From the sequence record NC_028659.1: a DNA stretch of 64,000 nt; one strand, given 5' to 3'. Both the position numbers and the translations under genes were made by a program. The notes beneath the pieces were generated by a model. That model did not search any database and was not told where the DNA came from. It saw nothing but the letters and a program-made list of their open reading frames with translations. Of this stretch, positions 4,995-33,646 are shown in pieces (the stretch's first letter is position 1; each line of letters begins with the position of its first letter). Source of the DNA: Klebsiella phage vB_KpnM_KB57.

Positions 4995-6674
4995 TTACAG
5001 TTGAGCGGCTGCGCGTTCACGAATCGTTGTCAGATCTTCATCGACAATAAGTTTACCGTTGTAGAACACACGACGCAGTTCGTTATCGTCAGACTGTACA
5101 TCTTCAAGCTGACAATTGTCAATCAGTTCTAACTGACCGAACATGTTGCGAACAACTTTGAGGAAACCTTTCGCAGATTTCTTACTGAGGTCGGTCTTAG
5201 GCTCTTTGACAACCATGATTTGCTGACCATCAATAACAGCGCCAGTTGCTTTCACAGCCATACCCAGTGAATCACGGGTTGTGTACTGGGTGGTAAAGGA
5301 ACCAACACCGTACACGATATTGCTGGATGCAAAGCCTTTATCTCTCAGACGTTCAAAGATGTCTTTTGCACGCGCGACAGTGATAGAATCACCGTAGATC
5401 AGACCAATATGACTATCAAGAACCTTATAGCCCTTGGAATTAACTTCACCACCGAAAATATCCCATAAACATTGGACTGCACCTACAGCTTCATGGTAAG
5501 GAACTTCATCTGTTTCATCAATAACATCAAAACCTGAAGACTGCTTGACACGATAGAACTTACCAAGAACCTGAACAAGTTCATATCCGGCTTCCGCATT
5601 GGCATCATAAGCTTCTTCAAAGCTTGCATAATCACCGCCATCTGTGTAGTAACCAGCAATGATATGCTCAGGGACACCGGAGTCCGGGCGGAATACAACA
5701 CGTCCATCGCGAGCCATGATTTCCTGTTTCAGGATCGCTGCTGCTTTGGTGATAATCGCCCAGAAGTCATAACTGTCTGCCACGTAGGAAACAAAACCTT
5801 TAGGGAAAATTTCCGTAATGTAGCGTTTCATGAATTCAACTTCAGCCAAGAAACGTGCTTCGTCCAGAGTCAGTTCCGGGTGTTCACCTTGTAGGCGACC
5901 GACGATAAATCCGATGTTCGTGGTTGCAACAGAGTGTTCAGATGCAGGAATAGAACCAGCAACGAACTTGCCTTTCATGTTGTAATAACGACGAGCATAC
6001 AGAATCGCTGGGATAGTGTCTGTACCCATAGAGTTGATCAGTTGACCGAATTCGCTCTGTGCTGCGTCGTGAGTACCAGCTTCACCGCGATATGCGAAGC
6101 AGTGGTTCTGGAATGCAACATGGTCGTTGTTATCACAGGTCTCAGCAGCCCATTTTTCAGACAGCTTGCGATACTGCCAGAACGTCGTTGCAGTTGTGAT
6201 AGTTTTCCAAGTTTCTGCGGAGATCACACTTTCCAGGAAGTTAGGCAACCAGTAAAAATCCGGGTGCGTATTCTGGATTGTAAACATTGGGACCTGAACC
6301 GGAGAAAGAGTTCCTTCTGGAAGAGCACGGATTTCCAGAGGAAGATAACCGAGATCATGAAGAGCCTCAAAGCCCCAGGTTTCTACCATGCCAATGCCGA
6401 TGCTGGAGTCGCAAACCTCACGATAATCAGCAACCGCTTCTTCTTTCGGGAGGTTGAAGAAGTTATTGTTGAACATGTCGATAAGGAACCACTTAATAAA
6501 TCCCTGAAGGCCAGCAAACATGACACGCTGGTCGTTATCAGCGAAGTGGATGAAGTGCTTCGCATTACGAGGGGTCATGTTATCCTGAACAATTTCAGAA
6601 CGTTTATCATACATGGAGATATGTGAAGGTTTGTAAAAGTCAGCGAACAGGATAGGACTTTCTTGATTAAGCAT
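4995..6674 (-). CDS. nadV: Nicotinamide phosphoribosyltransferase (NAMPT / NadV-like)
   Basis: ~560 aa. N-terminal ILFADFYK...SHISMY resembles NAMPT ILLATDSYK..THY. Internal DSYD motif and GVGSF...RD..G..VKATG C-terminal region. Start set at the internal Met preceded by AAGGAG. Confidence 0.75.
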   Translation of the reverse strand: MLNQESPILFADFYKPSHISMYDKRSEIVQDNMTPRNAKHFIHFADNDQRVMFAGLQGFIKWFLIDMFNNNFFNLPKEEAVADYREVCDSSIGIGMVETWGFEALHDLGYLPLEIRALPEGTLSPVQVPMFTIQNTHPDFYWLPNFLESVISAETWKTITTATTFWQYRKLSEKWAAETCDNNDHVAFQNHCFAYRGEAGTHDAAQSEFGQLINSMGTDTIPAILYARRYYNMKGKFVAGSIPASEHSVATTNIGFIVGRLQGEHPELTLDEARFLAEVEFMKRYITEIFPKGFVSYVADSYDFWAIITKAAAILKQEIMARDGRVVFRPDSGVPEHIIAGYYTDGGDYASFEEAYDANAEAGYELVQVLGKFYRVKQSSGFDVIDETDEVPYHEAVGAVQCLWDIFGGEVNSKGYKVLDSHIGLIYGDSITVARAKDIFERLRDKGFASSNIVYGVGSFTTQYTTRDSLGMAVKATGAVIDGQQIMVVKEPKTDLSKKSAKGFLKVVRNMFGQLELIDNCQLEDVQSDDNELRRVFYNGKLIVDEDLTTIRERAAAQL

Positions 6675-6735
6675 GTTTTGTTTCTCCTTTGTTTGTTTAA
6701 TAGGGCGATTGTACGCCCACTTATTCATTTGTCAA

Positions 6736-7536
6736 TTAAAAGTTTTCGGTCCAGTCGTGGTACGCGTAGATTTCATCAACGCCGCCTTCGTAGATAACTT
6801 CTTTACCGAAGGAAAAGATACCGTGAGTTACGTAAAGAATAACACGTTTTGCTCCTTTTGCCTTCAATGCTTGTGCCAGGGCGATGAATGTGCGACCACC
6901 ATCGCAGATATCATCGACAATAACACACTCGCGGCCTTCAACATCACCGAAAACAGCAGTCCCGGTAATTTCATTTGTCTTCAGATCGCGCACTTTTCCA
7001 GCTTCCACCAGAGGGAGGCGGAGACGATCGGAAACTTTCTGAGCTTTTTTACGTGCTCCGGCGTCAGGTGCCACGATAACAACATCTTTTCCAACCAGGC
7101 CTTCATGGAATTCCGCAATAAGAGCATCCTGACCACGAATTTTAACGTTGTTAAGCAACGCAGCAGAGACATCGCTGTGCGGATCATCGACAATGACCTT
7201 GTCAAACCCAAGAGAGTTGACGATATTTGCGAAAACTTTGATGGATAACGCTTCACCAGGTTGCATTACGCGGTCCTGACGTGCATATGGGATGTACGGC
7301 AAGTGCAAAGTGAACTGTGCAGTATGATGGAGGCCTTCAAGGCGAGAACATGCATCAACCAACATGGCAAGTGCCATAACATCAGTAGAATTTTTAATTT
7401 TCGCAGTGATGTCTACGAAACCAATACCACCTTTCGGGGTATGCGCCATATCGATTCTAACCTGTTCTTCACCACCTTTGAACGTAAAGTGATCGACAGG
7501 AACTACCAGTTTGTTCAGACGAAGTTCTAAACTCAT
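6736..7536 (-). CDS. prs: Ribose-phosphate pyrophosphokinase (PRPP synthetase)
   Basis: 266 aa with the PRPP-binding signature VIVDDICDGGRTF. Sits immediately upstream of NAMPT in the same orientation. Confidence 0.8.
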   Translation of the reverse strand: MSLELRLNKLVVPVDHFTFKGGEEQVRIDMAHTPKGGIGFVDITAKIKNSTDVMALAMLVDACSRLEGLHHTAQFTLHLPYIPYARQDRVMQPGEALSIKVFANIVNSLGFDKVIVDDPHSDVSAALLNNVKIRGQDALIAEFHEGLVGKDVVIVAPDAGARKKAQKVSDRLRLPLVEAGKVRDLKTNEITGTAVFGDVEGRECVIVDDICDGGRTFIALAQALKAKGAKRVILYVTHGIFSFGKEVIYEGGVDEIYAYHDWTENF

Positions 7537-7907
7537 TTCATATATCCTCTATTAACAATTATGTAATGTCTAGGTTTTGCATTCCCATTTGAATCCTGAA
7601 AACCAGAACGTATCCTTCGAATGTATCCAAGAGACTCCATCTTTGTCAAGAACTCTGATACTTTCGGTTGTGACTTTTCGCTCAACCCAAACAGATGACA
7701 CAAAGATTTTTGAGATGGGTAAAAAACTTCATCGCCACCATCTGGGTTTAGACTCTTGAAGTAATCATACCTCCACCAAAGCTTGATTAATCTTTGCAAA
7801 TCTTGGGGTGAGAGACGATCATCAAAAAGCCACTGCGTCGGAATGGTGACATATGCCCCATCTCTGATATTCACAGTGTTGTCACCAATCTTTATCTCCA
7901 CCACCAT
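7533..7907 (-). CDS. Hypothetical protein, possible winged-helix DNA-binding regulator (124 aa)
   Basis: ATGA overlap with prs. RBS AGGAG. First gene of the leftward operon, adjacent to palindromic operators. Confidence 0.45.
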   Translation of the reverse strand: MVVEIKIGDNTVNIRDGAYVTIPTQWLFDDRLSPQDLQRLIKLWWRYDYFKSLNPDGGDEVFYPSQKSLCHLFGLSEKSQPKVSEFLTKMESLGYIRRIRSGFQDSNGNAKPRHYIIVNRGYMK

Positions 7908-7974
7908 CTCCTATTTATTCCGCGATAGGTATAATTAGAGCCTACACCACTAAATCAATACTGTCAACTCTAAT

Positions 7975-8016
7975 TATTCCCGATTAGGAATATCTAATTA
8001 TTCCCGAAAAGGAATA
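7975..8016. promoter_or_regulatory. Two operator-like palindromes TATTCC-N6-GGAATA (7975-7992 and 7999-8016) in a divergent promoter region
   Basis: Perfect 6-bp inverted-repeat arms, tandem, 24 bp centre to centre. A third palindrome ACTCTATatcATAGAGT lies at ~8104-8122. Confidence 0.45.
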
Positions 8017-8176
8017 CAATACTAACTTATCATTTAAACTAACTTATGATCTTTAAAAACAATAAAACATAAGATCTAAAACAAGATCTTTTACTACAGA
8101 GTATAAATACTCTATATCATAGAGTCGGTGACTCGATGAGTTGGATTATCGTATGAAGAAAAGATGATGTCAAGTG

Positions 8177-8204
8177 TTGACATGAAATTTTTAACGTGTA
8201 GAAT
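8177..8204 (+). promoter_or_regulatory. sigma70-like promoter TTGACA-N16-TAGAAT for the rightward operon
   Basis: TTGACA at 8177-8182, TAGAAT at 8199-8204. RBS AAGGAG and ATG at 8230 follow. Confidence 0.6.
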
Positions 8205-9221: not shown

Positions 9222-9457
9222 GCAGACTTGCAAAACTAAACAGAAGAAAGAAAATGTTGAAAGAGAAGCAGAAAAACATCACGGCTACTTTCCAAGTATG
9301 CCGAGAGGCTATGAAGGCAAATTTGATAACACCTTCGCAGAGACAGTTGATCCGTGATATTCTTCGTCCTGTACTCCACGACCTTGAAGGTGAAGTTCGT
9401 GATGTTACACTTCATATTCAAGAGGAACTTGTAAAAAGATATCAGGAGGATACATGA
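9218..9457 (+). CDS. Hypothetical protein (79 aa)
   Basis: ATGA overlap coupling. Confidence 0.45.
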   Translation: MSRLAKLNRRKKMLKEKQKNITATFQVCREAMKANLITPSQRQLIRDILRPVLHDLEGEVRDVTLHIQEELVKRYQEDT

Positions 9458-10047
9458 TCGACCACGTCACGTCAGACACGCATTGGTGGCATACCAACAT
9501 CCTTGGTTTCCCATCGTGTGATAAATTCCGTAAGAACCTGTACGGTCCAAAAGAAGACCGTGAAAGTCTGTATGCCATGAATGCAGGCATGATTGAAATC
9601 TGGAATAAGCACGTCAAACCAGATGATGTCGTAGCACATCTTGGTGATTTCGTGATTGCTTACGGACGCTATATTGAGCCTCGTGTTCGTGACATCCTTG
9701 AAAAGATCAACGGAAAGATCATTCTCGTTGGTGGAAATCACGATAACCGTGATACGAAACGTATCTTCCGTGAGTTTGGTCATGAAGTTGTTGATTATAA
9801 AGAGATTGACTTTAGCACAGGGAAAGAGAAGGTGCGGGTATGTATGTCTCACTATCCGTTTGCATCGTGGAACAAAGCACACCACGGGTCAGTTATGTTG
9901 CACGGGCATAGCCACGGCTCCTATACGGCCCCTGGTGGACGTATTCTGGATGTTGGCTGGGATGTACATGGTCGTCCTCTTACGATGCGTGAAGCCGTCC
10001 TGATGTGCCTCAAAAAACCAATCTACACTGCTGACCACGGAGAATAA
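9454..10047 (+). CDS. Calcineurin-like metallophosphoesterase (197 aa). Candidate RNA 2',3'-cyclic phosphodiesterase / 3'-phosphatase.
   Basis: Motifs GDFV (GDxxD), GGNHD (GNHD), HGHSHG (GHxH). Confidence 0.65.
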   Translation: MIDHVTSDTHWWHTNILGFPSCDKFRKNLYGPKEDRESLYAMNAGMIEIWNKHVKPDDVVAHLGDFVIAYGRYIEPRVRDILEKINGKIILVGGNHDNRDTKRIFREFGHEVVDYKEIDFSTGKEKVRVCMSHYPFASWNKAHHGSVMLHGHSHGSYTAPGGRILDVGWDVHGRPLTMREAVLMCLKKPIYTADHGE

Positions 10048-10048
10048 G

Positions 10049-10405
10049 ATGCATAACAAAGAACGGAATTTCATAGCACGTAACACGGCGAAGTCTTTCT
10101 TCGCCACTATTCATATCGCCGGGGACTATACTCAGGCAAAGAATCTTTGTCGTCAGTGGGTTATGCAAGGTGCTTGTGTGCAGATTTCCCCATGCACTTA
10201 TATCTACACAGGCGGTGCGGAAGAGGGTATGACTGTTCGGTTAATGCAGTATCCGCGTTTCCAGAGAACTGAGATTGAAATCCTTGAGATGGCTCGGGAG
10301 TTGGGAACTTACCTCGCTCAAGAGCTTTGCCAGATCAGTTTCAGTATTGAAACACCTTACAATACCACTTATTACCAAGCTGAGGGATACGATAAGCGCT
10401 CATGA
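10049..10405 (+). CDS. Hypothetical protein (118 aa)
   Basis: ORF packed between neighbours. Confidence 0.45.
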   Translation: MHNKERNFIARNTAKSFFATIHIAGDYTQAKNLCRQWVMQGACVQISPCTYIYTGGAEEGMTVRLMQYPRFQRTEIEILEMARELGTYLAQELCQISFSIETPYNTTYYQAEGYDKRS

Positions 10406-10605
10406 AAATACACAACATAACCAAAGACAGGATTCATTTCATAATGGATTCAGGAGCTTACGGATCTATCTCCAAGGCAGATGCCATGAAATTTCTGTAT
10501 GCTTCAAATATTCCTCAGGCAAAGCTTGACTCCCGTTCAGGAGAGTGTATTATTGACTCTATCACGAATATACAAGACCTGTGGGAGATATATCATGAAG
10601 TTTAA
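10402..10605 (+). CDS. Hypothetical protein (67 aa)
   Basis: ATGA overlap. Confidence 0.4.
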   Translation: MKIHNITKDRIHFIMDSGAYGSISKADAMKFLYASNIPQAKLDSRSGECIIDSITNIQDLWEIYHEV

Positions 10606-11557
10606 TGTTGACGATCTGGTCGCTAAAAATCTGGTAACCAAAAAGACTTACACCGAAGGCCCGTTCGCGGGTCTGTCTGTGCTGAAGTATAAGAACAATG
10701 TGTTCTGGGATAACCTGTGGCATACTGACCCACGCCTGCTTGAGTGCCGTGGCATGGTTGTTGATTCAGAAGACAACGTGATTATCTGGCCTTTCACTAA
10801 GATTTTCAACCGCTTCGAGAATGGAACTGACCTTCCTCTTGACAAACCGGTTGTTTGTTCCCGCAAGGTCAATGGTTTTATGGCCACAGCGGCAATACAC
10901 AAAGACAAGCTCCTCGTTTCAACAACAGGGACATTGGATTCTGAGTTTTCAGAATTGGCTCGTAAGTACCTCGAAAAAATGAATTTTGATCTGATTTCTT
11001 TCCGTGAAGATTACACTTTCATTTTCGAAATATGCGATAGCAGCGACCCACATATTGTGGAAGAGAAAGAAGGTGCTTATCTGATTGGTGTCCGTGACCT
11101 CGCTTTAAACGGTGTTATGGTTGAAGAGCACAAACTTGATCGCATCGCTGAAGTGATCGGTGCAAAACGTCCTCAATGGGATGTCCGTGCATTTGGCGAT
11201 GTCGTTGCAGCCAGTCATGCTGTTAGCCACGAAGGTTTTGTTGTCCGAAATATCGGGACAGATGACGAAAATAGCGAACTACTTTTGAAAATCAAGTCCC
11301 CACATTACCTGGCGAAGAAATTCCTGATGCGTGGAGGTGATAACAAGTGGGATATGATCTGGGATAACCCGAAAGAGGCCAAGAAGCGTATTGACGAAGA
11401 GTATTACGAGTTGCTAGACCATATTCGTGAGTATTACTCTAAAGATGTTTGGTCCGCGATGGATTCTCAAAAACGACGTCAGGTTGTTGAAGATTACTTC
11501 GCTATCGAAGACATGTTTGATCGTGGTAGTCGTTTTTATGTTGGGGTTCCAAAATGA
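10595..11557 (+). CDS. ATP-dependent RNA ligase (Rnl-type covalent nucleotidyltransferase, ~320 aa)
   Basis: Nucleotidyltransferase motifs: I KVNG, III FIFEIC, IV EGFVVR, V LLLKIKS. Size fits Rnl2. Confidence 0.6.
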   Translation: MKFNVDDLVAKNLVTKKTYTEGPFAGLSVLKYKNNVFWDNLWHTDPRLLECRGMVVDSEDNVIIWPFTKIFNRFENGTDLPLDKPVVCSRKVNGFMATAAIHKDKLLVSTTGTLDSEFSELARKYLEKMNFDLISFREDYTFIFEICDSSDPHIVEEKEGAYLIGVRDLALNGVMVEEHKLDRIAEVIGAKRPQWDVRAFGDVVAASHAVSHEGFVVRNIGTDDENSELLLKIKSPHYLAKKFLMRGGDNKWDMIWDNPKEAKKRIDEEYYELLDHIREYYSKDVWSAMDSQKRRQVVEDYFAIEDMFDRGSRFYVGVPK

Positions 11558-11898
11558 TTATCTGGCTTGATGACCTGAGAGATCCAAAAGACTACGGGTA
11601 TCCTGATGCCTTGTGGTTCAAGACCTCTCAGAAATTTATGGACTTTCTGGACAACAGGTCAAAGTTCTATCGTTATGTCACAGAGTGGCATTTCGATAAT
11701 GACCTTGGGGAAGGGTCAGAAATGGAGGGCTATGACTGCCTGTTGGCCTTGGAAGAGAAGCTTGTGTATGGAAAACTTCCTGTGCATGATGCTAAACTCT
11801 ATGTCCACACGTCTAACCCTTCTGCGGCACAAAAGTTCATGCTTGCAAAAGAGAGCTTCTTGAAGTATCGTATCACGATCTTAAGAAACAATTACTGA
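11554..11898 (+). CDS. Hypothetical protein (114 aa)
   Basis: ATGA overlap. Confidence 0.45.
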   Translation: MIIWLDDLRDPKDYGYPDALWFKTSQKFMDFLDNRSKFYRYVTEWHFDNDLGEGSEMEGYDCLLALEEKLVYGKLPVHDAKLYVHTSNPSAAQKFMLAKESFLKYRITILRNNY

Positions 11899-11907
11899 GG
11901 AGAAGAG

Positions 11908-12312
11908 ATGGAAAAGACTCTGATTATCCTGCGTGGTGTGTCTGGTGCGGGTAAGTCTACAGTTGCTGAGACAATCGCTGGTAAAGCATGGCCTGTGTTT
12001 GAGGCCGATAAATACCATTATCGGGACGGGGTTTACGACTGGAAGCCTGAAAACATGGCTGTTGCTCATAAGTGGTGTCAAGAACAGGTACGTGAGGCTA
12101 TGGTGTGCCGTATTGCAAAAATTATCGTATCCAACACTTCGACAACAGAGAAGGAACTAAAACCCTACATTGCCCTTGCTGATGAGCACGGATACCAAGT
12201 TATTAGCTTGGTGGTCGAGAATAGGCATGGTAATGATTCTATTCACAATGTTCCGCAGGAAACTCGTGATGCTCAAGAGCTTCGTCTGCGTAACTCATTG
12301 AAATTACAGTAA
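11908..12312 (+). CDS. P-loop polynucleotide 5'-kinase-like protein (134 aa)
   Basis: Walker A GVSGAGKST. Downstream IIVSNTSTTEK resembles the T4 Pnk kinase-domain motif. Confidence 0.5.
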   Translation: MEKTLIILRGVSGAGKSTVAETIAGKAWPVFEADKYHYRDGVYDWKPENMAVAHKWCQEQVREAMVCRIAKIIVSNTSTTEKELKPYIALADEHGYQVISLVVENRHGNDSIHNVPQETRDAQELRLRNSLKLQ

Positions 12313-12320
12313 GGAAAGAT

Positions 12321-12545
12321 ATGTATAAAGGAAATAACCTACGGGAATCGTTCGAAAATTGGTGGGACTCTCTTAGCGATCCTTGGTCAACACCAGAAGC
12401 AAAATCTGCTGCATGGGAAGCCTGGAAGTTTTCAAATTTACGAGTTCTTAATAAAATTCGTTATATGAAAGGTATTACCGAGCGGTGCAATGGTTATAAT
12501 GAGGCTATGAATGAGATAAATAATGTTATAGGGGAAAATCCATGA
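12321..12545 (+). CDS. Hypothetical protein (74 aa)
   Basis: ORF. Confidence 0.4.
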   Translation: MYKGNNLRESFENWWDSLSDPWSTPEAKSAAWEAWKFSNLRVLNKIRYMKGITERCNGYNEAMNEINNVIGENP

Positions 12546-13318
12546 GACGTCTTATCGTTATAAGTGGTGCTGGCTTCTCTGCGGAGAGTGGTGTACGTAC
12601 ATTCCGCACAGATACTGAATCTGGTAAAGCCCTGTGGGATGAATACGACCTTGAGGAGGTTTGTAACATACACGCCTTCCGTGGTAACTTCTACCATAAA
12701 ACGCACATGTTTTATAACAAGCGTCGTGCAGAGTTACCAACGGTACATCCGAATGCGGCGCATCTTCGCGTGGCTGAGTGGTACAGACGTTATCCTGGGC
12801 AGGTTGTTAACATGACAACTAACGTTGATGACCTTCTGGAACGTGCGGGTGTCCCTAAAGAAGATACTCTTTACATCCACGGGTATCTGAAAGAAATTCG
12901 ATACAAGCTCCATGAAGATTCTGAAGAGCAGTTGGTTGACATCGGTTACGATGAGGTAGACCCCGACCAATTTCATTGGTGTAAACCAAACGTAGTTTTC
13001 TTTGGTGAGAATGCTCCGGCCTATGGCCCTATGAATGATACCTTGGAGTCATTGACAAATCAGGATCTTGTAATTGTTGTAGGCTGTTCAAATACAGTTA
13101 TTAACTTCAACTGGGAGTTGTTCCCTGCGGTTATGCGGGGGACCAAAGTTGTTGTTGTTAATCCTGCTATTAGGTATGATGAACAAATGATGTATGAGAA
13201 TGCGGGTGTTCTTGTATATCGTACCGGAGCTGTTGATGCCTTTAATAATCCAGGCCTTATCAAGATAGTTGAGAATCACCTTGAAGGTAAGACACCATTG
13301 CAAAGCAAGGAGAAATAA
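12542..13318 (+). CDS. SIR2-family (sirtuin-like) NAD-dependent protein
   Basis: N-terminal GAGFSAESGVRTFR matches Sir2 GAGIS.ESGIP.FR. HPNAAH (PN.AH) and TTNVDDL (TQNIDGL) motifs present. No obvious CxxC..CxxC zinc ribbon. Confidence 0.65.
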   Translation: MRRLIVISGAGFSAESGVRTFRTDTESGKALWDEYDLEEVCNIHAFRGNFYHKTHMFYNKRRAELPTVHPNAAHLRVAEWYRRYPGQVVNMTTNVDDLLERAGVPKEDTLYIHGYLKEIRYKLHEDSEEQLVDIGYDEVDPDQFHWCKPNVVFFGENAPAYGPMNDTLESLTNQDLVIVVGCSNTVINFNWELFPAVMRGTKVVVVNPAIRYDEQMMYENAGVLVYRTGAVDAFNNPGLIKIVENHLEGKTPLQSKEK

Positions 13319-14631
13319 TGCAACAAGTAAACAGTACACTGTACGCCCTTAATAAAGATGGTTCTTTCCAGTGTTGGAAGGTGTTTATTGCTGGTAATCA
13401 GGTAGTTGTAGAGTTTGGCAAGGTTGGTGGTAAGAAGCAACAAAAGGTTACCACCTGTGAACCGAAGAACGTTGGACGTTCTAACGAAACCACCGCAGAA
13501 CAGCAGGCATTGGCTGAGGCGGTTTCCAAATGGGAGAAACAGGTTCGCCTTGGATATCGTGACGATACAAGTAAGCTTGAGCAGGAAGAGAACTTCTCCC
13601 CAATGCTGGCCCATGATGCAACTAAACGTTCAAAATCAATAGTTTATCCTGCATACGTGCAACCTAAGCTCGATGGTGTACGTGCTCTGGTTACTCTTGA
13701 TGCAGATGGCTTCCCACAATTCAATAGCCGTGGTAACAAACTGTATCCTGTACCGCTTGATTCTGAGTTGTCTGAACAGGTTAAATCCCTTTCTGAGCAT
13801 TCAGGGTTTGACAAATTCGATGGGGAGCTGTACATTCATGGTCTGAGTCTGCAAAAGATTGTCGCTCTTGCTAAGAAGTGGCGTACACCAGAGCAGATCG
13901 AGGAAGAGATTGAAAAGGATTATCAGTCTGACCTGAAGCGCCATCAGAAAGCTATTGACAATGGGGAAGACAGTTGGAAAGATTTCGATGGTGATGTTTA
14001 CTCTGTCGCGATCGAACCAGTTAAAGATGTTGATCGTTATGGCGGCTATTCAAGCCTTGACCTAGAGTACCATATCTTTGACATTCCGTGTTCAAATAAA
14101 CCCTGGATGATTAACGATGGGATTTCAGACTATACAGATAAGGAGTGTCGATACAAAGACCTTATGGACACTGACCACTTCACCTCTGTTATTAAAGCAG
14201 ATAAAATAAATGTGGTCCAAGGTAATGTCTTTGACACTGAGGATGAGGTTAAGCAATCAATCGGACATTTTATGCAGCAAGGCTTTGAGGGTGCTATCAT
14301 CCGAAATTTCAAAGGTGTCTATGAATTTGGTCAGCGATCTTCTGATCTCCAGAAATGGAAACTTTTCCAAGACGGCGAGGCTAAAGTCCTTGATTCTGTG
14401 GAAGATAAGAACGGTGAGGGTGTATTACTCTGCGAAGAGAAAGATGGTACACGTTTCAACTGTAAAATGAAGGGAACCCACGCAGAGAGATCTCAGGAAC
14501 GAATGCTCCTGCTGGTGGGTAAGTTTATTAACTTCACGTTCCAAGCTAGAACTGATGATGGTGTTCCTCAGTTCCCTGTGGGCCAAAGCGTTCGTGAACT
14601 CGATACATTAACATGGGAGCCTGTATACTAA
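13318..14631 (+). CDS. ATP-dependent DNA ligase (437 aa)
   Basis: Motif I PKLDGVRAL (KxDG), size and position within a DNA-metabolism operon. Confidence 0.55.
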   Translation: MQQVNSTLYALNKDGSFQCWKVFIAGNQVVVEFGKVGGKKQQKVTTCEPKNVGRSNETTAEQQALAEAVSKWEKQVRLGYRDDTSKLEQEENFSPMLAHDATKRSKSIVYPAYVQPKLDGVRALVTLDADGFPQFNSRGNKLYPVPLDSELSEQVKSLSEHSGFDKFDGELYIHGLSLQKIVALAKKWRTPEQIEEEIEKDYQSDLKRHQKAIDNGEDSWKDFDGDVYSVAIEPVKDVDRYGGYSSLDLEYHIFDIPCSNKPWMINDGISDYTDKECRYKDLMDTDHFTSVIKADKINVVQGNVFDTEDEVKQSIGHFMQQGFEGAIIRNFKGVYEFGQRSSDLQKWKLFQDGEAKVLDSVEDKNGEGVLLCEEKDGTRFNCKMKGTHAERSQERMLLLVGKFINFTFQARTDDGVPQFPVGQSVRELDTLTWEPVY

Positions 14632-15092
14632 TGGGATTTTATCGTAAAAAACCTGTAGAGGTTGAAGCACATAAGTTTGACGGGTCGTCAACCAGCGCAG
14701 GGCAGATCCATAATTGGATGGAAACTGGTGTGTGGAAGGATTCCGAAATCCACACTCGTGATTGTGGTCGTACTGTAGAGATAAAAACCCCAGAGGGTGT
14801 GGTTGTAGCCTCTGCTGGGGATTATGTAATTAAAGGGGTGGCTGGAGAATTCTATCCTTGCAAATCAGAAATTTTCCATGCAACATATGACCCGCTGGAA
14901 GACACTGATCGGGAACCTGGGAACTACCCAGCTAAAGCAATCCGTAAGGGTGATGAGATCATGTTTTGCGGAAAGGTTTATACCGTAACGAATACTGGTG
15001 CGATGGGGGAGGATGTTATCCTGACTCTCGGTGATGGTTCCCAAATCCCTGTGCGCCCTGATACTCAAATTATCGTAACAAAGGCACAGTAA
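14613..15092 (+). CDS. Hypothetical protein (159 aa)
   Basis: ORF. Confidence 0.45.
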   Translation: MGACILMGFYRKKPVEVEAHKFDGSSTSAGQIHNWMETGVWKDSEIHTRDCGRTVEIKTPEGVVVASAGDYVIKGVAGEFYPCKSEIFHATYDPLEDTDREPGNYPAKAIRKGDEIMFCGKVYTVTNTGAMGEDVILTLGDGSQIPVRPDTQIIVTKAQ

Positions 15093-15093
15093 A

Positions 15094-15444
15094 ATGATCT
15101 GGTATTGGCTGGCGCTACTAGGCGCATCATTTGTAACAGGAGGCGGCATTTATGCCGCTTACAGATTCCGAAAAGATAAGTTGGATGATTTCTTTGACTG
15201 GGTTGCTGGAAAGGTTAAACGTCTGCTGATCATCTGGGTATTTGTTATGGGCCTTGTTACGCTGGCCCTTACTGTCCCATTATGGCATACTATGACTTGT
15301 CAGTTCGACGGCTGGGCCGCGAATACAGAGACCAGTTATTCATGGTACAAATCAACCTGCCTGTATAAAAGCAAGACAGGGGCATGGCTACCTTTAGGTA
15401 TCAGTCGTGATCAACCGCAAGGAGATGGTGATGCATCAAATTAA
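15094..15444 (+). CDS. Membrane protein (116 aa, 2 TM)
   Basis: Two hydrophobic helices. Confidence 0.45.
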   Translation: MIWYWLALLGASFVTGGGIYAAYRFRKDKLDDFFDWVAGKVKRLLIIWVFVMGLVTLALTVPLWHTMTCQFDGWAANTETSYSWYKSTCLYKSKTGAWLPLGISRDQPQGDGDASN

Positions 15445-15685
15445 AGAAAATACTGTAGATTTTGAAGCGCATATCTACGATTCTGCGATGAACGACAACT
15501 ACAGATGGTCAATTCGTCCAGATCCTGATCTGCCAGGTTCAGTTAATCTTTCTTACAATGAGTTAGCTCATTATGACAACCGTTCTCGCCAAGGCTATGA
15601 GCAGCGAGGTATGGTAGGTTTCGATAAAGAAACTTGGGAAAAAATTAAATACGCCATCGATGGTGTTTTTGAAAAAACAATTTAG
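15431..15685 (+). CDS. Hypothetical protein (~84 aa)
   Basis: Start at the Met preceded by GGAG. Confidence 0.4.
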   Translation: MHQIKENTVDFEAHIYDSAMNDNYRWSIRPDPDLPGSVNLSYNELAHYDNRSRQGYEQRGMVGFDKETWEKIKYAIDGVFEKTI

Positions 15686-15693
15686 GAGATTTA

Positions 15694-16359
15694 ATGAAAG
15701 AAGCTTACGAAACCCTCAACTCAATGCTGCGCCCAACCTCCCTTGTTAAGTATGCGAAACATGTGGTAGATTGGAATTCTATCGCAGCTTCTGCAAAGGG
15801 TGAATTTACCCCATTGGAAAAGCAGTGGGAGTTTGTCGGAGAGGAGTTAGAAGAAACCGTTAAGGCATTAGCCGAAAATGACCGTAAGGAAGTCATTGAT
15901 GGGGCATGTGACTTGTTTGTTGTAGCGTCGTATGCTTATTGGTTGAGTAATAACCATTCACTATCCTTAAATTATAACCCTGATCTTAAGTTTTCGCTTG
16001 GTAAAGCTTTGGATGCTTTTGCGAATGAAGACTACGAAGAAATGCTTAAATTGAGCACAGCTTTGTTGTTTGGTATTGATATGCAATTGGATAAGAACAT
16101 GAGTAGCGTTCTTGAGTCTAACGATTCTAAATATCCAACACTTAACGAAGTTCAGTCTTTGCATAAAGATCTTGACTTGGTAAAAGCCCTTGAGGCAGAA
16201 TGCGCCTGTATCGAACGGCGTAACGGTGGACGTTATGAAGGTGTTCATTTCTCGATTGTTGATGGGAATATGAAAGAAGAGCCTCGTGTCGTATTCTTCG
16301 ACAAAGGTGGTAAAATCATGAAGCCTGGAACTTTCAAAAAGCCAAACATTATTGTTTGA
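15694..16359 (+). CDS. MazG-like all-alpha nucleotide pyrophosphohydrolase domain protein (221 aa), tentative
   Basis: EELEE...E..D acidic cluster (VGEELEETVKALAENDRKEVIDGACD) resembling the MazG EExxE..E..D motif. Confidence 0.35.
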   Translation: MKEAYETLNSMLRPTSLVKYAKHVVDWNSIAASAKGEFTPLEKQWEFVGEELEETVKALAENDRKEVIDGACDLFVVASYAYWLSNNHSLSLNYNPDLKFSLGKALDAFANEDYEEMLKLSTALLFGIDMQLDKNMSSVLESNDSKYPTLNEVQSLHKDLDLVKALEAECACIERRNGGRYEGVHFSIVDGNMKEEPRVVFFDKGGKIMKPGTFKKPNIIV

Positions 16360-17258: not shown

Positions 17259-17422
17259 TGTTGCTAAATCTGAAGGCTGCAACTTGGGAAAAGTTGCAGC
17301 ACTTGGCAAAGTCCAAAGGTAAGTCTGCGGCATCTTATGTTGCAAAAATCGTAGATGACCACGTTGATGAAAACGTAAAGACTGAGTATAAAATCAAAGA
17401 GGAGAAACAAACTAATGCTTAA
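17258..17422 (+). CDS. Ribbon-helix-helix (CopG/Arc-like) small protein (54 aa)
   Basis: MLLNLKAATWEKLQHLAKSKGKSAASYVAKIV fits the RHH beta-strand/helix pattern. Overlaps the start of the SPFH gene. Confidence 0.4.
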   Translation: MLLNLKAATWEKLQHLAKSKGKSAASYVAKIVDDHVDENVKTEYKIKEEKQTNA

Positions 17423-18305
17423 GAATATCAAACGCGTAGTATTTGCTGGTCTGATCGCCCTGGGTGCAATTGGTCTGACTGGTTGTGAACGTGCAACTGT
17501 TCCGGCGGGTTATGTGGGCGTTAAGGTTGACCTGTATGGTGATGAGAAAGGCGTTCAGCAGCAAGAAGTTGGCGTTGGTAAGTATTGGTTAACCTGGAAC
17601 GAAGAGATCTATCAGTTCCCGACGTTCAACCAGTTGAACAACTACGAACAACCGTTTAACTTCCAGACCAAAGATTCTATGACGGTTACTGCGAAGATCG
17701 GTGTTGAGTATTACGTTGACCGCTCTAAGGTTACCAAGATCTTCCAGACCTACCGTAAAGGCGTCCAGGAGATTACCGATGTCAACATTCGTCAGAATAT
17801 CTCTGATGCGTTGATCAAGGAAGCGGGTACAATGGACATTGGTACACTGGCTGGTGATGGTAAATCTCAGCTTCTGGACCGAGTGACCAAGACCCTGAAG
17901 CAGAAACTTGACCCGGTAGGTATCGTTATTGTGAAACTGTCTTACACTGATGACCTTGGTTATCCTCCTCAGGTAACTGCGTCCATCAACGCTAAGATCG
18001 AAGCGACTCAGAAAGCGCTGCTGCGTGAAAACGAAATCCAGCAGACTAAAGCTGAAGCTCAGAAACAAATTGAAGCAGCTCGCGGTGAAGCAGAATCCCA
18101 GCGACTGCAAGCTCAGGGCCAGGCAGATGCTAAAGTAGCTCTGGCAAAAGGTGAAGCAGAATCCATCCAACTGCGTGGTGATGCTCTCCGTAAGAACCCT
18201 GAAATCATGCAACTGGAAGCGATCAACAAGTGGGACGGTAAAACCCCGACCATTATGGGTGGCAACGGTGCAGTACCTTTCGTAAATCTGCCAGCAGGTA
18301 AGTAA
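17415..18305 (+). CDS. SPFH/Band-7 (prohibitin/HflK-like) domain lipoprotein
   Basis: Lipobox LTGC after a signal peptide. Central SPFH-like region and C-terminal AEAQ/coiled-coil repeat typical of the HflK/stomatin family. Confidence 0.65.
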   Translation: MLKNIKRVVFAGLIALGAIGLTGCERATVPAGYVGVKVDLYGDEKGVQQQEVGVGKYWLTWNEEIYQFPTFNQLNNYEQPFNFQTKDSMTVTAKIGVEYYVDRSKVTKIFQTYRKGVQEITDVNIRQNISDALIKEAGTMDIGTLAGDGKSQLLDRVTKTLKQKLDPVGIVIVKLSYTDDLGYPPQVTASINAKIEATQKALLRENEIQQTKAEAQKQIEAARGEAESQRLQAQGQADAKVALAKGEAESIQLRGDALRKNPEIMQLEAINKWDGKTPTIMGGNGAVPFVNLPAGK

Positions 18306-18307: not shown

Positions 18308-18336
18308 GTTGACAAAAGGCCCGGTGATTAGTATCA
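18308..18336 (+). promoter_or_regulatory. sigma70-like promoter TTGACA-N17-TATCAT overlapping a hairpin
   Basis: TTGACA at 18308-13, TATCAT at 18331-36. Inverted repeat CCCGGTGAT/ATCATCGGG. Confidence 0.5.
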
Positions 18337-18367
18337 TCGGGTCTCTACTTACAAAAGGAGATACACA

Positions 18368-18562
18368 ATGATCCGCACAAAAATTCTTATCGCAGCATTG
18401 CTGCTCTCTTCTCCGGTATTCGCAACTGTAAACACTCTCGATTTGGTTGATGAATATACCAACGGCAGCTCTAAGGTCTGCGTTTACAGCGACGGTCATC
18501 GAACAGAGACTGTAACAAAAGATGGCGCTGGTTCTTGTCCAAGTAAGAAAACATTTCATTGA
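18368..18562 (+). CDS. Small secreted protein (64 aa) with signal peptide
   Basis: N-terminal MIRTKILIAALLLSSPVFA signal. RBS AAGGAG. Confidence 0.5.
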   Translation: MIRTKILIAALLLSSPVFATVNTLDLVDEYTNGSSKVCVYSDGHRTETVTKDGAGSCPSKKTFH

Positions 18563-18569
18563 GGGAATA

Positions 18570-19076
18570 ATGCGAGTAACTGATAAATACGTCTTTTTCT
18601 TCACTTACCGGGATATGTTCAGTAATCACTACCGCCAAGTTATTCCTATTCGTTGTGGTGGTTACGAGTTTTTCACTGTAGAACATTACATGATGTTCCA
18701 GAAGGCAATGCTCTTCGATGACAAAGAAATTGCTTCCCGTATCGCTACGGTTGATAACCCTAATGAGGCCAAAGCTCTTGGTCGTCAGGTAAAAGGTTTC
18801 GACAACAGCGTCTGGGAAGAAAATAGAATGGATATAGTGACTTCAGGTCTTGTATTGAAAATGAAGGCCAACAGATCTGTTCTCGAAGCTGCTCTTGGGC
18901 ATCGAGATGCTGGGCGTAAGTTTGTGGAAGCCTCCCCTTATGATGCCATCTGGGGTGTTAAATTAAACGAATATGACACACGTATCGATGACCCAACCAA
19001 CTGGCGTGGTTTGAATCTTCTCGGTAAGTGCTGGGAACGAGCTATTGATATTGTTGTTGCTGCAACGTGGAGGTGA
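18570..19076 (+). CDS. NADAR (YbiA-like, DUF1768) domain protein. Predicted ADP-ribose / N-glycosidic hydrolase.
   Basis: FFFTYRDMFSNHYRQ...GGYEFFTVEHYMMFQKAMLFDD...AKALGRQV...WEENR...ASPYDAIWGV matches NADAR family hallmarks (F.SNF...F.T.EHY.QA.KF...LGR...W.....SP.D.WG). Confidence 0.65.
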   Translation: MRVTDKYVFFFTYRDMFSNHYRQVIPIRCGGYEFFTVEHYMMFQKAMLFDDKEIASRIATVDNPNEAKALGRQVKGFDNSVWEENRMDIVTSGLVLKMKANRSVLEAALGHRDAGRKFVEASPYDAIWGVKLNEYDTRIDDPTNWRGLNLLGKCWERAIDIVVAATWR

Positions 19077-23221: not shown

Positions 23222-23225
23222 CTTT

Positions 23226-31026: not shown

Positions 31027-31051
31027 CATAGCAACCTTCTGTCTGTATGAT
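31023..31051 (+). promoter_or_regulatory. sigma70-like promoter TTGACA-N17-TATGAT
   Basis: TTGACA at 31023-28, TATGAT at 31046-51. Confidence 0.55.
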
Positions 31052-31105
31052 TTATGTAATCCTGCCGAGAAATCTGTCCGGCGGGAAATTTAGAGGAGAA
31101 TTCGA

Positions 31106-31249
31106 ATGAGTAAAAAAGCACTGCGTAAGGCATATACCAAGGAACTGGCTCTGGAACTGCGTGGCAAAAAGCCGAAGAATAAACGCTCTTCTGATGAAGA
31201 ACTTCAGCAACTTGCAGCAGACGCTGCCGCTCGCGGGGGTTACTAATGT
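31106..31249 (+). CDS. Small basic protein (47 aa)
   Basis: RBS AGAGGAG. ATGA-type overlap with the next gene. Not in the supplied track (<60 aa). Confidence 0.4.
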
Positions 31250-31626
31250 CAAAAAAGGCCGAAGTTGTAACCACTGACTTACGACCTTCTCTGGCAAAGG
31301 AGTTTGTTTCTCTGGTGTGGGACCGACTGATCGGGGATTTTGCTACTGGATTGCAGGTGCAGGTTGAAAGTCTCCAGAACATGGTGAAGGGAGAGAAAGA
31401 CGTATATTTTGCCAAGGAAATAAAGGAGAAAAAAGAACGCCTTCGTAAAACTCTCTCTACAGGGGTTCAACAGAAAGTGTTTGATAAATTGGTCTGCCAG
31501 TTGGCAGAGGCTTTGACAGAAGAAGAGCTGAGATACGCGATCTTCCAAGAGAAGATTACGATCAAGATTCATGGGGTAGCCTCCCAGCTCGAAGCGGCTT
31601 TTGAAGAGGCAGTGGGAGAGGCCTAA
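31246..31626 (+). CDS. Hypothetical protein (126 aa)
   Basis: ORF. Confidence 0.5.
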   Translation: MSKKAEVVTTDLRPSLAKEFVSLVWDRLIGDFATGLQVQVESLQNMVKGEKDVYFAKEIKEKKERLRKTLSTGVQQKVFDKLVCQLAEALTEEELRYAIFQEKITIKIHGVASQLEAAFEEAVGEA

Positions 31627-31644
31627 CCTGAAAAAGGAGGTCTT

Positions 31645-32199
31645 TTGAAACTTACGCTGGAACAACTCAACAAAATATTTCCGAATGGCGCGAAGGCTGG
31701 CAGAAATGCCAAGTTTATTGGTCCTTTGAATGATTTGTTTGAGAAGGGTGGTATTAATACTGTCAACCGCATTGCCGGATTCCTTTCCCAAATCGGTGTG
31801 GAGTCCGCAGAGTTCCTGTATACCAGAGAGCTTGGAAACAATGCCTACTTTAATAAGTATGATACCGGACCAATTGCAAAGCGACTTGGCAATACACCAG
31901 AAAAGGATGGTGACGGAGCTAAGTACAAGGGACGTGGTCTGATCCAAGTCACCGGGCTTGCAAACTACAAAGCTTGTGGTAAAGCCTTAGGGTTGGATCT
32001 CGTCAATCACCCTGAATTACTTGAACAGCCGAAATATGCAGTTGACAGCGCTGGTTGGTACTGGAACATGAGAAACATCAACGCCGCTTGCGATGCTGAT
32101 GATATCACCAAAATCACCAAGCTGGTAAATGGCGGGACTAACCACCTCGCAGAAAGAACCGCATACTACAAAAAGGCAAAATCTGTTCTAACCTCTTAA
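31645..32199 (+). CDS. Endolysin, glycoside hydrolase family 19 (chitinase-like lysozyme)
   Basis: RIAGFLSQIGVESAEF...KYKGRGLIQVTGLANYKACGKALGLDLVNHPELL matches the GH19 catalytic core. RBS AAGGAGG with TTG start. Confidence 0.65.
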   Translation: MKLTLEQLNKIFPNGAKAGRNAKFIGPLNDLFEKGGINTVNRIAGFLSQIGVESAEFLYTRELGNNAYFNKYDTGPIAKRLGNTPEKDGDGAKYKGRGLIQVTGLANYKACGKALGLDLVNHPELLEQPKYAVDSAGWYWNMRNINAACDADDITKITKLVNGGTNHLAERTAYYKKAKSVLTS

Positions 32200-32209
32200 G
32201 GAGAACCAC

Positions 32210-32998
32210 ATGGGAAGAAGCAAAGAGGCTCGTGCAACCAAACTCAGCGTTCGCCAGCAACAACGTGCTGAGAGACAAGCCAAGCACCACCCTAAATTCG
32301 ATGAGGAAAGGAATAGCGCTCCACCGCTGACTCCTCTGAATGACAAGCAGCAAGATTACCTTCACAAGTTGCAAACTTGCAATATTGTTATCGCAAAAGG
32401 TATCTTCGGTACAGGTAAAACTTACCTGGCATCGGCCTACGCTGCTGATCTGCTCCGTAAGAATGAACTCGACAAGATCATTGTCGCTCGCCCTTATGTG
32501 CAGACGGGTAAAACCTCCGGCTTCAAACCGGGAACATCGTTGGAAAAACTCTTCCCGTATGTTCGTAACATGTTAGACACCATCCGTAAACGTATGGGCG
32601 ACGGTGCCTATTACAATGCGCTTAAAGATGGTCTGAATGGGCGTATTGAAGTTCAGGAATTGGAAAGCATCCGTGGTCGTTCATTCGATGAAAGAAGCTA
32701 TCTCCTGATCGACGAAGCCCAGCAGAGTACCCCAGAGGAAATGTTGAGTATCATCACACGTATCTCTGACAACTGTACACTCGTGGTCATGGGGGATGCC
32801 TCTCAGAAAGATATCCACGGAATCTCCGGTCTGGAGTGGGTGGAAGATTTCCTGAGCCGGAACGGGATCGCGGGTGTGGGTATTGTAAACTTCGACAACC
32901 CAGATGATGACATCGTCCGTGGTGGTATGGTTCGTGACATTGCCAAGGCGTTAATCGCCGACCGTGCAGAAGGACGCTATACCCCACTGGCTTCGTAA
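32210..32998 (+). CDS. phoH: PhoH-like ATPase
   Basis: Walker A GIFGTGKTYLA and PhoH-family layout (262 aa). Confidence 0.8.
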   Translation: MGRSKEARATKLSVRQQQRAERQAKHHPKFDEERNSAPPLTPLNDKQQDYLHKLQTCNIVIAKGIFGTGKTYLASAYAADLLRKNELDKIIVARPYVQTGKTSGFKPGTSLEKLFPYVRNMLDTIRKRMGDGAYYNALKDGLNGRIEVQELESIRGRSFDERSYLLIDEAQQSTPEEMLSIITRISDNCTLVVMGDASQKDIHGISGLEWVEDFLSRNGIAGVGIVNFDNPDDDIVRGGMVRDIAKALIADRAEGRYTPLAS

Positions 32999-33007
32999 CG
33001 GAGGATT

Positions 33008-33646
33008 ATGGCTTATTATACAGGCGTGGGGTCGAGGGAGACCCCTCCTGAGGTTATCAGCATCATGGAAGATGCTGGTTTCCGCCTTGCAAGGTGCGGA
33101 TTCACCTTGAGAAGTGGAAAAGCAGGTGGCGCAGATGAAGCATTCCAGGTCGGAATGCAAAAATATTACGAATCTCTTGACAATGGGAAGCAAGAAGAGT
33201 ATCGTACACATTTGGCGGAGATCTATATCCCCTGGGATGGATTTGCATCTGACAATGACAATCTCTGGGATTTCTGGGATTATCCTTTAGATTATCTTGA
33301 TTATCTGATTCCCGACCAAAAGGTTGTACGTGAGGAACTGGTTGAGGAGATTCATCCTAATTTTGAAGCTCTTAAAAGAAAAAGAGGAGCTTTTGCGCTC
33401 CATTCTCGTAATGTGCATCAAGTCTTGGGGGCCAATATCCTCGATCCACGTCCCTCTGCATTTTGTTTGTACTATGCCAAAGAAGATAGGAACGGAAATC
33501 CTAAGGGAGGTACTGCAACCGCAGTTAATTTAGCCAGAAAGTACGGAGTTCGGGTTCTTAACCTGAACACACCTGATAAACTAGCCTTGTTGGAGAGGTT
33601 CTTAAGATCCTTGGAGGAAAAACGTGGCATCCAGATTTCGCGATAA
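33008..33646 (+). CDS. DprA/Smf-like Rossmann (SLOG-superfamily) protein, tentative
   Basis: YYTGVGSRETPPEV...GFTLRSGKAGGADEAFQVG resembles the DprA/SLOG GSR...SG.A.G.D.A..G nucleotide-binding core. Confidence 0.35.
   Translation: MAYYTGVGSRETPPEVISIMEDAGFRLARCGFTLRSGKAGGADEAFQVGMQKYYESLDNGKQEEYRTHLAEIYIPWDGFASDNDNLWDFWDYPLDYLDYLIPDQKVVREELVEEIHPNFEALKRKRGAFALHSRNVHQVLGANILDPRPSAFCLYYAKEDRNGNPKGGTATAVNLARKYGVRVLNLNTPDKLALLERFLRSLEEKRGIQISR

Follow-up and report, generated by a model that had tools for sequence, protein, structure and literature searches.

We suggest that five genes for nicotinamide adenine dinucleotide (NAD+) and ADP-ribose (ADPR) metabolism in Klebsiella phage vB_KpnM_KB57 (NC_028659.1) are likely a toolkit of four independently inherited and already described modules, which share NAD+/ADPR chemistry and act on different substrates. 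The genes lie in the 64,000-nt stretch that was analysed, hereafter the window, and comprise an adjoining NAMPT-like and Prs-like pair (module 1, the Adps-Namat operon of NAD+ reconstitution pathway 1, NARP1, as judged by sequence), a sirtuin within an RNA-repair cassette (module 2), a stand-alone NADAR (module 3) and a stand-alone SLOG protein (module 4). The original prediction had named these five homologies (NAMPT, Prs, SIR2, NADAR and SLOG) and read the genes as a unit. All five homologies are real and lie at or near the positions where it had placed them, and none of the proteins is reassigned to an unrelated fold, as every fold assignment survives comparison with Pfam and the PDB and structure prediction. 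Thus, the observation is correct, while its reading as a unit is partly supported and little in it is new. Our own reading builds on homologies, motifs, a fold, gene contexts and phyletic patterns that are observed directly.

By megablast of a 19-kb query, the source lineage is Mydovirus (Vequintavirinae); the query is 96-97% identical over 95-98% of its length to Klebsiella phages KpS8, vB_KpnM_NDO71, Seu621 and others, and the RefSeq annotation of KpS8 provides a gene map that is collinear with the window. Base composition is even along the window and the sign of the GC skew flips where the coding strand switches. All five genes together span 29 kb; they lie on both strands, occupy at least four transcription contexts and are separated by dozens of unrelated genes. 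Domains were called with Pfam and with the equivalog cut-offs of NCBIfam, and defence profiles with PADLOC at E <= 0.01. For comparison, six relatives were searched locally with 21 proteins, either in the syntenic regions or over the whole genome, covering the whole genome of CR8 and 135 of 139 kb (97%) of FFH2. Phage-wide frequencies refer to 50,697 phage records; co-occurrence across these was assessed by tblastn with the five proteins concatenated and in 60 records sampled at even intervals. Neighbourhoods of SLOG genes were taken from 80 IMG/VR loci centred on SLOG homologues, 70 of them less than 60% identical to the window protein.

The modules are distributed among the relatives as follows:

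KpS8 (Mydovirus): NARP1, Sir2 RNA-repair cassette, NADAR and SLOG all present
4MG, SSE121 and PVP-SE1 (Seunavirus): NARP1, Sir2 cassette, NADAR and SLOG all present
CR8 (Certrevirus, whole genome): NARP1, NADAR and SLOG present, Sir2 cassette absent
FFH2 (Vequintavirus, 135 of 139 kb): Sir2 cassette present, NARP1, NADAR and SLOG absent

In KpS8, 4MG, SSE121 and PVP-SE1, the modules follow the order of the window. CR8 lacks the phosphoesterase, the Rnl1-type ligase, the cREC protein, the kinase and Sir2 together. Because the patterns in CR8 and FFH2 are reciprocal, the sirtuin is inherited with the RNA-repair genes and independently of NARP1, NADAR and SLOG. The joint pattern of the latter three may result from a single gain or loss. 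Thus, the expectation that the genes co-occur in relatives holds for all five in KpS8 and the three Seunaviruses and breaks down in CR8 and FFH2, where Sir2 separates from the others.

Among all phage records, Sir2 is found in 989, including T5-like, rV5-like, phAPEC8-like and KVP40-like phages, NADAR in 717, mostly myoviruses of Staphylococcus, Listeria, Enterococcus and Bacillus, SLOG in 1,201 and Adps in 1,567. The concatenated search matched 3,436 records at 4,609 separate places, with a mean of 1.34 of the 4 loci per record. Within the sample of 60, all four loci are present in two records, two loci in six and two families in one place in five, while 47 (78%) have a single family. If the loci were independent at their observed frequencies, about 0.01 records among the 50,697 would be expected to have all four, whereas a whole clade is observed. 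As the clade represents a single evolutionary lineage of large myoviruses, common descent and genome size account for the excess, and not many independent events. Overall, the gene pattern fits a guild whose members are related in function but reshuffled independently of each other. The spread over at least four transcription contexts, the reciprocal pattern in FFH2 and CR8 and the predominance of single-locus records in the sample are at odds with the proposal that the five genes form one unit.

Module 1 consists of the following features:

4995-6728, minus strand: Namat, a NAMPT-like nicotinamide ADP-ribose transferase and predicted second NARP1 enzyme (Pfam NAPRTase, 3e-27)
6736-7536, minus strand: Adps, a Prs-like protein, predicted ADP-ribose pyrophosphokinase and first NARP1 enzyme (Pfam Pribosyltran, Pribosyl_synth and Pribosyltran_N)
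7533-7907, minus strand: small helix-turn-helix (HTH) protein of 124 aa that heads the NARP1 operon (weak HTH_36 match, 0.0055)
8145-8204: back-to-back near-consensus sigma-70-like promoters, each matching 11 of 12 hexamer positions (consensus matches only)

The Adps and Namat genes are on the same strand and 7 bp apart, and the stop codon of the HTH gene overlaps the start of Adps by 4 bp. Osterman et al. (2024, 10.1101/2024.02.11.579819) demonstrated that a two-gene operon of this type yields NAD+ from ADPR and nicotinamide via ADP-ribose pyrophosphate (ADPR-PP), and that the Pfam-based prediction of nicotinamide mononucleotide (NMN) synthesis is wrong for such operons. In their data, a Namat gene neighbours 97% of Adps-clade genes, and adjacency is their criterion. 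The window pair has this arrangement. From its probable start at 6674, window Namat has 559 aa (559-577 aa depending on the start). Its best solved relative is Namat of phage SpbetaL1 (4e-123, 415 bits; 9W5X/9W5W, the PDB codes deposited for Namat), while true NAMPTs match at about 1e-48 to 6e-51 (best 6e-51, 176 bits). In a residue alignment to the SpbetaL1 enzyme, Arg306, Asp308, Gly360-Asp361, Gly390-Ser391-Phe392, Tyr396 and Thr398-Arg399-Asp400 are kept, and the window motifs GSFTTQYTTRD and FRPDSG align to the adenine-clamp and catalytic-core residues; the NAD+-contacting residues of Namat are named in PMC12774641. In the variable clamp loop, the window protein has Lys in place of Arg40, which is the variant that the authors describe for Bas63-type Namat (PMC12774641). 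In NCBIfam, window Namat scores above the cut-off for nicotinate phosphoribosyltransferase. Adps matches Prs in NCBIfam at the subfamily level only and is below every equivalog cut-off; its VDDICDGGRT motif and AGK hairpin agree with Asp212-Asp213-Ile214-Cys215-Asp216 of the PP-loop and with Lys185, as compared with the published residue names (PMC13586617). The tblastn matches of Adps include the validated NARP1 phage FADO and Felixounaviruses. Altogether, these data identify the pair, at the level of sequence, as the Adps-Namat operon of the published NARP1 pathway.

The HTH protein has copies upstream of Adps in SSE121 and PVP-SE1 that are 96% identical, and no tblastn match in KpS8 or 4MG. 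Because it has no such match there, although the neighbouring Adps is 100% identical to that of KpS8, the comparison points to local mosaicism at the 5' end of the operon. Known NARP1 accessory genes (Macro/Adpp, RyR/RyDEP) were considered for the operon and ruled out, the weakly matching HTH gene being the sole extra gene. Specifically, the gene list places no Macro/Adpp gene in the operon, and tblastn with two NARP1-linked Macro proteins was empty across the window. Therefore, the operon is not of the NARP1-AP variant. The promoter pair lies in a region of 300 bp that separates the NARP1 operon on the minus strand from a gene cluster on the plus strand. In relatives, the operon has additional genes: in 4MG, a 177-aa gene sits between Adps and Namat (locus L005, 7782-8315), and in the Seunaviruses an extra 186-aa HTH/T5orf172-like gene is upstream of Adps (locus L012, 14690-15250 in PVP-SE1); neither is in the window phage. 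Just upstream of the operon, six tRNA genes are clustered at 182-3612 on the minus strand (Leu-TAA, Thr-TGT, Lys-CTT and two Met-CAT), with a call at 536-610 that has an irregular anticodon loop and is unassignable by ARAGORN; the cluster has the same placement in KpS8, 4MG and PVP-SE1.

Module 2 is encoded on the other side of the promoter pair and comprises:

9454-10047, plus strand: calcineurin-like phosphoesterase (Pfam Metallophos, 1.5e-6)
10499-11557, plus strand: T4 Rnl1-type RNA ligase (Pfam RNA_lig_T4_1, 3e-13)
11554-11898, plus strand: cREC, a cyclic-phosphate-processing receiver domain protein (Pfam cREC_REC PF20274, 4e-17)
11908-12312, plus strand: P-loop nucleotide/polynucleotide kinase-like protein (Pfam AAA_33, 2e-10)
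12542-13318, plus strand: CobB-like sirtuin of 258 aa, a single domain with a degenerate zinc module (Pfam SIR2 PF02146, 1e-23)
15694-16359, plus strand: MazG-superfamily pyrophosphatase (Pfam PRA-PH, 1.5e-5), kept beside Sir2 in FFH2

An ATP-dependent DNA ligase is encoded between the sirtuin and the MazG-like gene, also on the plus strand, and the phosphoesterase is conserved along with the cassette in FFH2, 4MG, SSE121 and PVP-SE1. The sirtuin matches E. coli CobB (1S5P) at 6e-21; the GAGxS motif (GAGFSAESG), TTNVDD and the IHG motif with the catalytic His align to CobB and are kept. In the region aligned to the Cys4 of CobB, one zinc cysteine is left. In NCBIfam the protein scores at most 114.5 bits, where the cut-off is 243, and it is under all CobB equivalog cut-offs. 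PADLOC returned no match of the sirtuin to a defence-type SIR2 profile. Iyer et al. (2022, PMC9503650, section 3.7.3) described a type 2 sirtuin neighbourhood in phage V5 and Proteus phage Mydo, in which MazG is listed, and predicted that it serves to repair RNA with the use of NAD+, the sirtuin acting on 2'-phosphates in a KptA/Tpt1-like manner. The gene content identifies the window cassette as a member of this neighbourhood, for which a KptA/Tpt1-like activity is predicted. Our literature search found no experimental papers on a phage sirtuin. Further RNA-repair or translation-rescue genes are encoded on the plus strand at 37358-38605, 39790-40281 and 40664-41737, namely a CCA-adding enzyme (PolyA_pol and HD), a weak PTH2-like protein and an RlaP nucleotidyltransferase. 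The CCA-adding enzyme and RlaP ("RNA repair pathway") are found in 4MG, SSE121 and CR8 and not in FFH2; therefore, both do not follow the Sir2 cassette.

Module 3 is a single gene:

18570-19076 (open reading frame listed as 18522-19076), plus strand: orphan NADAR, a predicted ADP-ribosyl glycohydrolase (Pfam NADAR, 6e-35)

The Pfam score is 121 bits against a cut-off of 35, translation probably starts from the ATG at 18570, in line with the KpS8 annotation, and a promoter-like site (consensus match) lies upstream at 18309-18337. The protein matches the Phytophthora NADAR 8BAU (PnNADAR) at 2e-15, and the Glu and Lys of VEHYMMFQK and the last-strand motif FVEASPYD are kept across the relatives. 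It is 40% identical over 165 aa to gp144 of phage "outra" (Justusliebigvirus), whose termini (MRITDKYV...YLKAQSDIS) equal the cloning primers of NADAR-Bas60 save one residue. Work from the LeRoux laboratory (PMC11257639, PMC11825919) has shown for two NADARs of phages other than T4, one of them NADAR-Bas60, that they neutralise DarT1 and rescue phages from DarTG1 and not from DarTG2, and every NADAR subtype tested to date hydrolyses guanine-ADP-ribose (PMC11125620). By analogy to these homologues, the window protein is a plausible remover of ADPR from DNA; its substrate may be guanine-linked ADPR on DNA or a soluble ADPR derivative. Because it also exceeds the NCBIfam cut-off of TIGR02464 (riboflavin biosynthesis intermediates N-glycosidase), we keep a YbiA-like role as a minor alternative. 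The gene has no DarT neighbour; its flanking genes encode an SPFH protein and an HNH endonuclease. The SPFH/Band 7 protein (17415-18305, plus strand; Pfam 1.5e-21) is directly upstream of NADAR and is found in Mydovirus and Seunavirus and not in CR8 or FFH2. As NADAR is found in only 14 Salmonella records, it had appeared that Seunaviruses are without it; this was ruled out by the syntenic NADAR genes of 4MG, SSE121 and PVP-SE1, with 59-88% identity.

Module 4 is likewise a single gene, shown here with its upstream neighbour:

33008-33646, plus strand: stand-alone SLOG (DprA-like Rossmannoid) protein of 212 aa (fold from structure prediction)
32210-32998, plus strand: PhoH-like ATPase directly upstream of the SLOG gene (Pfam PhoH, 2e-47)

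A single-sequence search of the PDB with the SLOG protein gave no match and a profile search a marginal match to DprA (E 0.23); the score against the DprA profile of Pfam (DNA_processg_A) is 14.5 bits with a cut-off of 29.6. As these sequence searches failed, structure prediction was needed; the predicted model confirms the SLOG Rossmannoid fold with DprA as the closest relative, and the alignment to DprA covers the Rossmann core alone (147 residues). Iyer et al. (2022) proposed that viral SLOG domains degrade or sense signals like cyclic ADP-ribose (cADPR); a literature search found no experimental work on a stand-alone phage SLOG protein. The most constant neighbour of SLOG genes is PhoH, which is within 10 kb in 40 of the 80 IMG/VR loci, often directly upstream and in many unrelated phage lineages, while NADAR is within this distance in none of the 80. 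In the 70 more divergent loci, the genes within 10 kb include PhoH (30 loci), NARP1 (11), Macro (10), Sir2 (8) and NADAR (0). The NARP1 genes in these 11 loci have several different spacings, and in the eight loci Sir2 is 4-6 kb off. In one SLOG homologue, P0108, NADAR and SLOG are fused. In Pseudomonas phages PsCh and Pyxpy01, genes for a phosphohydrolase, a phosphoesterase, an RNA ligase, a kinase, Adps, Namat, Macro and SLOG are on one strand, and in a phAPEC8-like contig a phosphoesterase gene directly precedes SLOG, with Sir2 4 kb downstream past a DNA methylase. Thus, the affinity of SLOG for NAD+/ADPR genes is real but loose.

Set against these data, the functional claims of the original prediction fare differently. 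That the phage can make NAD+ is borne out in so far as NARP1 would rebuild it, with the correction that the route is ADPR-PP and not phosphoribosyl pyrophosphate (PRPP) and NMN. ADPR removal is plausible for NADAR, whose catalytic motifs are kept. By contrast, the sirtuin does not belong to the set: it travels with the RNA-ligase cassette and matches no defence-type SIR2 model. A link of SLOG to NAD+/ADPR agrees with the fusion P0108 and with its NARP1 and Sir2 neighbours, but the idea was already published (PMC9503650). The combination had been thought undescribed; Iyer et al. (2022), in a survey of the NAD+/ADPR network across 21,191 viral proteomes, detected NADAR in 27% of the myoviruses and NadV in 22% of phages of medium size, and already reported both the co-occurrence of NAD+/ADPR domains in large myoviruses and the same sirtuin neighbourhood. 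Since then, NARP1 and phage NADARs have been characterised experimentally. The window phage therefore adds no new kind of system to a general picture that is already published.

We propose the following model for how the modules could act. A host NADase (Thoeris type I, DSR, SIR2-HerA or SEFIR) would split NAD+, Adps would pyrophosphorylate the ADPR, and Namat would join ADPR-PP and nicotinamide to give NAD+. The RNA-repair cassette would heal tRNAs cut by host anticodon nucleases, with the sirtuin spending NAD+ like KptA/Tpt1 to take off the 2'-phosphate. NADAR would most likely strip ADPR put on guanines of the phage DNA by a DarT1-type toxin. Finally, the SLOG protein would probably bind or cleave a soluble ADPR-derived nucleotide, which is the least certain step.

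Several points weigh against four separately acting modules. NARP1, NADAR and SLOG co-vary over four Vequintavirinae genera, being present in three and missing from one. As SLOG is beside Adps-Namat-Macro in several lineages and near Sir2 in others, there may be some functional coupling between the modules. NADAR passes the cut-off for a riboflavin-intermediate N-glycosidase, and the role of the sirtuin in RNA repair is a published prediction. More generally, we infer all activities, those of modules 1 and 3 from characterised homologues and those of modules 2 and 4 from published predictions.

Among the alternatives, we regard as rather unlikely that SLOG, and in this lineage also the sirtuin/cREC/phosphoesterase cassette, turn ADPR derivatives into ADPR, which NARP1 would convert to NAD+. 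Candidate derivatives would be cADPR isomers, which are immune signals, or the ADPR cyclic phosphate from NAD+-dependent 2'-phosphate removal. If true, tRNA repair would be NAD+-neutral and NARP1 would be supplied by a set of interchangeable "feeder" enzymes, to which SLOG would belong beside Macro/Adpp and RyDEP. In a more specific form, the sirtuin would spend NAD+ on RNA 2'-phosphates with release of nicotinamide and ADP-ribose 1''-2'' cyclic phosphate, cREC and the phosphoesterase would process the latter to ADPR, and the divergently transcribed NARP1 operon would close the loop to NAD+, with SLOG feeding in another ADPR derivative. This closed loop, which we consider unlikely, is consistent with the 300-bp region with divergent promoter-like sites that parts NARP1 from the cassette, and with the one-strand order of phosphoesterase, RNA ligase, kinase, Adps, Namat, Macro and SLOG in Pseudomonas Pakpunavirus-like phages. 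Moreover, Macro (Adpp), which is associated with NARP1, has a homologue in Poa1p, the ADPR-1''-phosphate phosphatase of tRNA splicing, and RyDEP shows by precedent that other enzymes can feed NARP1. However, no RNA-ligase genes neighbour NARP1 in Felixounavirus heid, Kayvirus Sa83 and ICP1, which rules out that it generally adjoins RNA-ligase cassettes, the two are found apart from each other in FFH2 (cassette only) and CR8 (NARP1 only), and the sirtuin step is itself a predicted activity.

We consider it very unlikely that the genes are one integrated multilayer NAD+ system, in which the five products were selected together to make, spend, remove and sequester NAD-derived molecules. The conserved syntenic positions of all five genes in KpS8, 4MG, SSE121 and PVP-SE1, the joint presence of NARP1, NADAR and SLOG in CR8 and their joint absence from FFH2, the existence of a NADAR-SLOG fusion and the grouping of SLOG with Adps-Namat-Macro in Pseudomonas phages would all fit such a system. 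They are outweighed by the spread over 29 kb and both strands with dozens of unrelated genes in between, the segregation of Sir2 apart from the other three loci, the lack of NADAR within 10 kb of SLOG in all 80 IMG/VR loci and the finding that most phages have only one of the four loci; also, the joint pattern in four related genera may be one event of gain or loss.

Lastly, ordinary auxiliary metabolism, with NAMPT and Prs making NMN to raise NAD+ for replication, a Sir2 deacylase, a YbiA-type NADAR and a DprA mediator, is a reading to which we give hardly any credence: the NCBIfam scores of Namat and NADAR, the NAM (nicotinamide) and PRPP chemistry that Namat still performs in vitro (PMC12774641) and the NadR-like NMNAT and PnuC of relatives, which could use NMN or nicotinamide riboside, speak for it, but the ADPR-PP-specific clamp residues of Namat are kept, Adps reaches Prs at the subfamily level only, the Pfam-based NMN prediction proved wrong for such operons (10.1101/2024.02.11.579819), Sir2 has lost all zinc cysteines save one, is below the CobB cut-offs and sits amid RNA-end-healing genes, SLOG is a bare 212-aa Rossmannoid domain well under the DprA cut-off, and all tested NADAR subtypes hydrolyse guanine-ADP-ribose (PMC11125620).

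The relatives encode further NAD+ genes. Neither NMNAT nor PnuC is found in the window, though both are named in the annotation of a related record. The features annotated in this record, OY757067.1 (Klebsiella phage vB_Kpn_K23PH08C2), do not line up with its sequence: by tblastn, the site labelled "nicotinamide-nucleotide adenylyltransferase" has no NMNAT homologue, and NARP1 and Sir2 carry unrelated names. The annotation was not used. PVP-SE1 encodes a NadR-like NMNAT and a PnuC-like protein near the DNA polymerase (locus L011, 17275-18348 and 20067-20795); the NadR-like NMNAT is 95% identical in Klebsiella phages KPP-1 and BIS47, in which PnuC was not searched for. Thus, the lineage of the window phage probably combines NARP1 with a second NAD+-rebuilding route. 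At 43840-45486, on the minus strand and thus opposite to its neighbours, the window encodes a protein of 548 aa that combines three CapR homology domains with DUF723 and a zinc-ribbon-like stretch.

The NAD+-rebuilding layers in the literature are NARP1 (10.1101/2024.02.11.579819), NARP1-AP, RyDEP and NARP3 (PMC13464706). Our data confirm that a therapeutic-type Klebsiella myovirus carries several predicted counter-defence layers against NAD+-based and ADP-ribosylation-based immunity, namely NARP1, the orphan NADAR and, in close relatives, the NARP3-like pair. This is of use for predicting which host defences such phages escape. For the phage sirtuin (989 records) and the stand-alone SLOG protein (1,201 records), the placement beside RNA-repair genes, NARP1/Macro and PhoH provides concrete hypotheses.

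Compared with known systems, module 1 resembles NARP1 in its adjoining Prs-like and NAMPT-like phage genes, its Namat-clade sequence, the adenine clamp and the catalytic core, and the PP-loop is putatively of the Adps type. It differs in that Namat, at 559-577 aa, is long, has two insertions when aligned to the SpbetaL1 enzyme and has Lys for Arg40, and in that the operon is headed by a small HTH gene and is without Macro (Adpp). The genes of the relatives that resemble NARP3 (PnuC and NadR-like; PMC13464706) are about 34% identical to the T5-like versions, and several small genes part the pair in PVP-SE1, so that it is no tight two-gene operon. In contrast to DarT-NADAR toxin-antitoxin pairs, the window NADAR has no DarT partner and is an orphan like AdfN of T4. 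Like the phage orphan NADARs AdfN, NADAR-Bas32 and NADAR-Bas60, it is a stand-alone protein with the catalytic Glu/Lys and the acidic motif and belongs to a Bas60-type sequence family; it is only about 40% identical to the NADAR-Bas60 type and also scores as a YbiA-like N-glycosidase domain.

The window sirtuin differs from the defence SIR2 NADases (ThsA, DSR1/2 and SIR2-HerA) in being a single domain without a match to their profiles. With CobB-type deacylases it shares the NAD+-binding motifs and the catalytic His, and it differs from them in the zinc Cys4 and in score. The SLOG protein differs from DprA/Smf, with their flanking SAM and winged-helix domains, in that it has no threshold-level match and that, over its 212 aa, only the Rossmann core aligns. 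With viral stand-alone SLOG domains, the SLOG sensor of ThsA and DprA, it shares a Rossmannoid fold with GxGSR, SGxAxGxD and GGT motifs; in other viruses, the stand-alone SLOG domains are fused to or adjoin NADAR, Macro and NAD-salvage genes (Iyer et al. 2022, section 3.4.4). The closest correspondence is that of the sirtuin cassette to the type 2 sirtuin neighbourhood (PMC9503650): the same six genes, here at 9454-16359, are found in the same lineage (Mydovirus), with no substantive difference.

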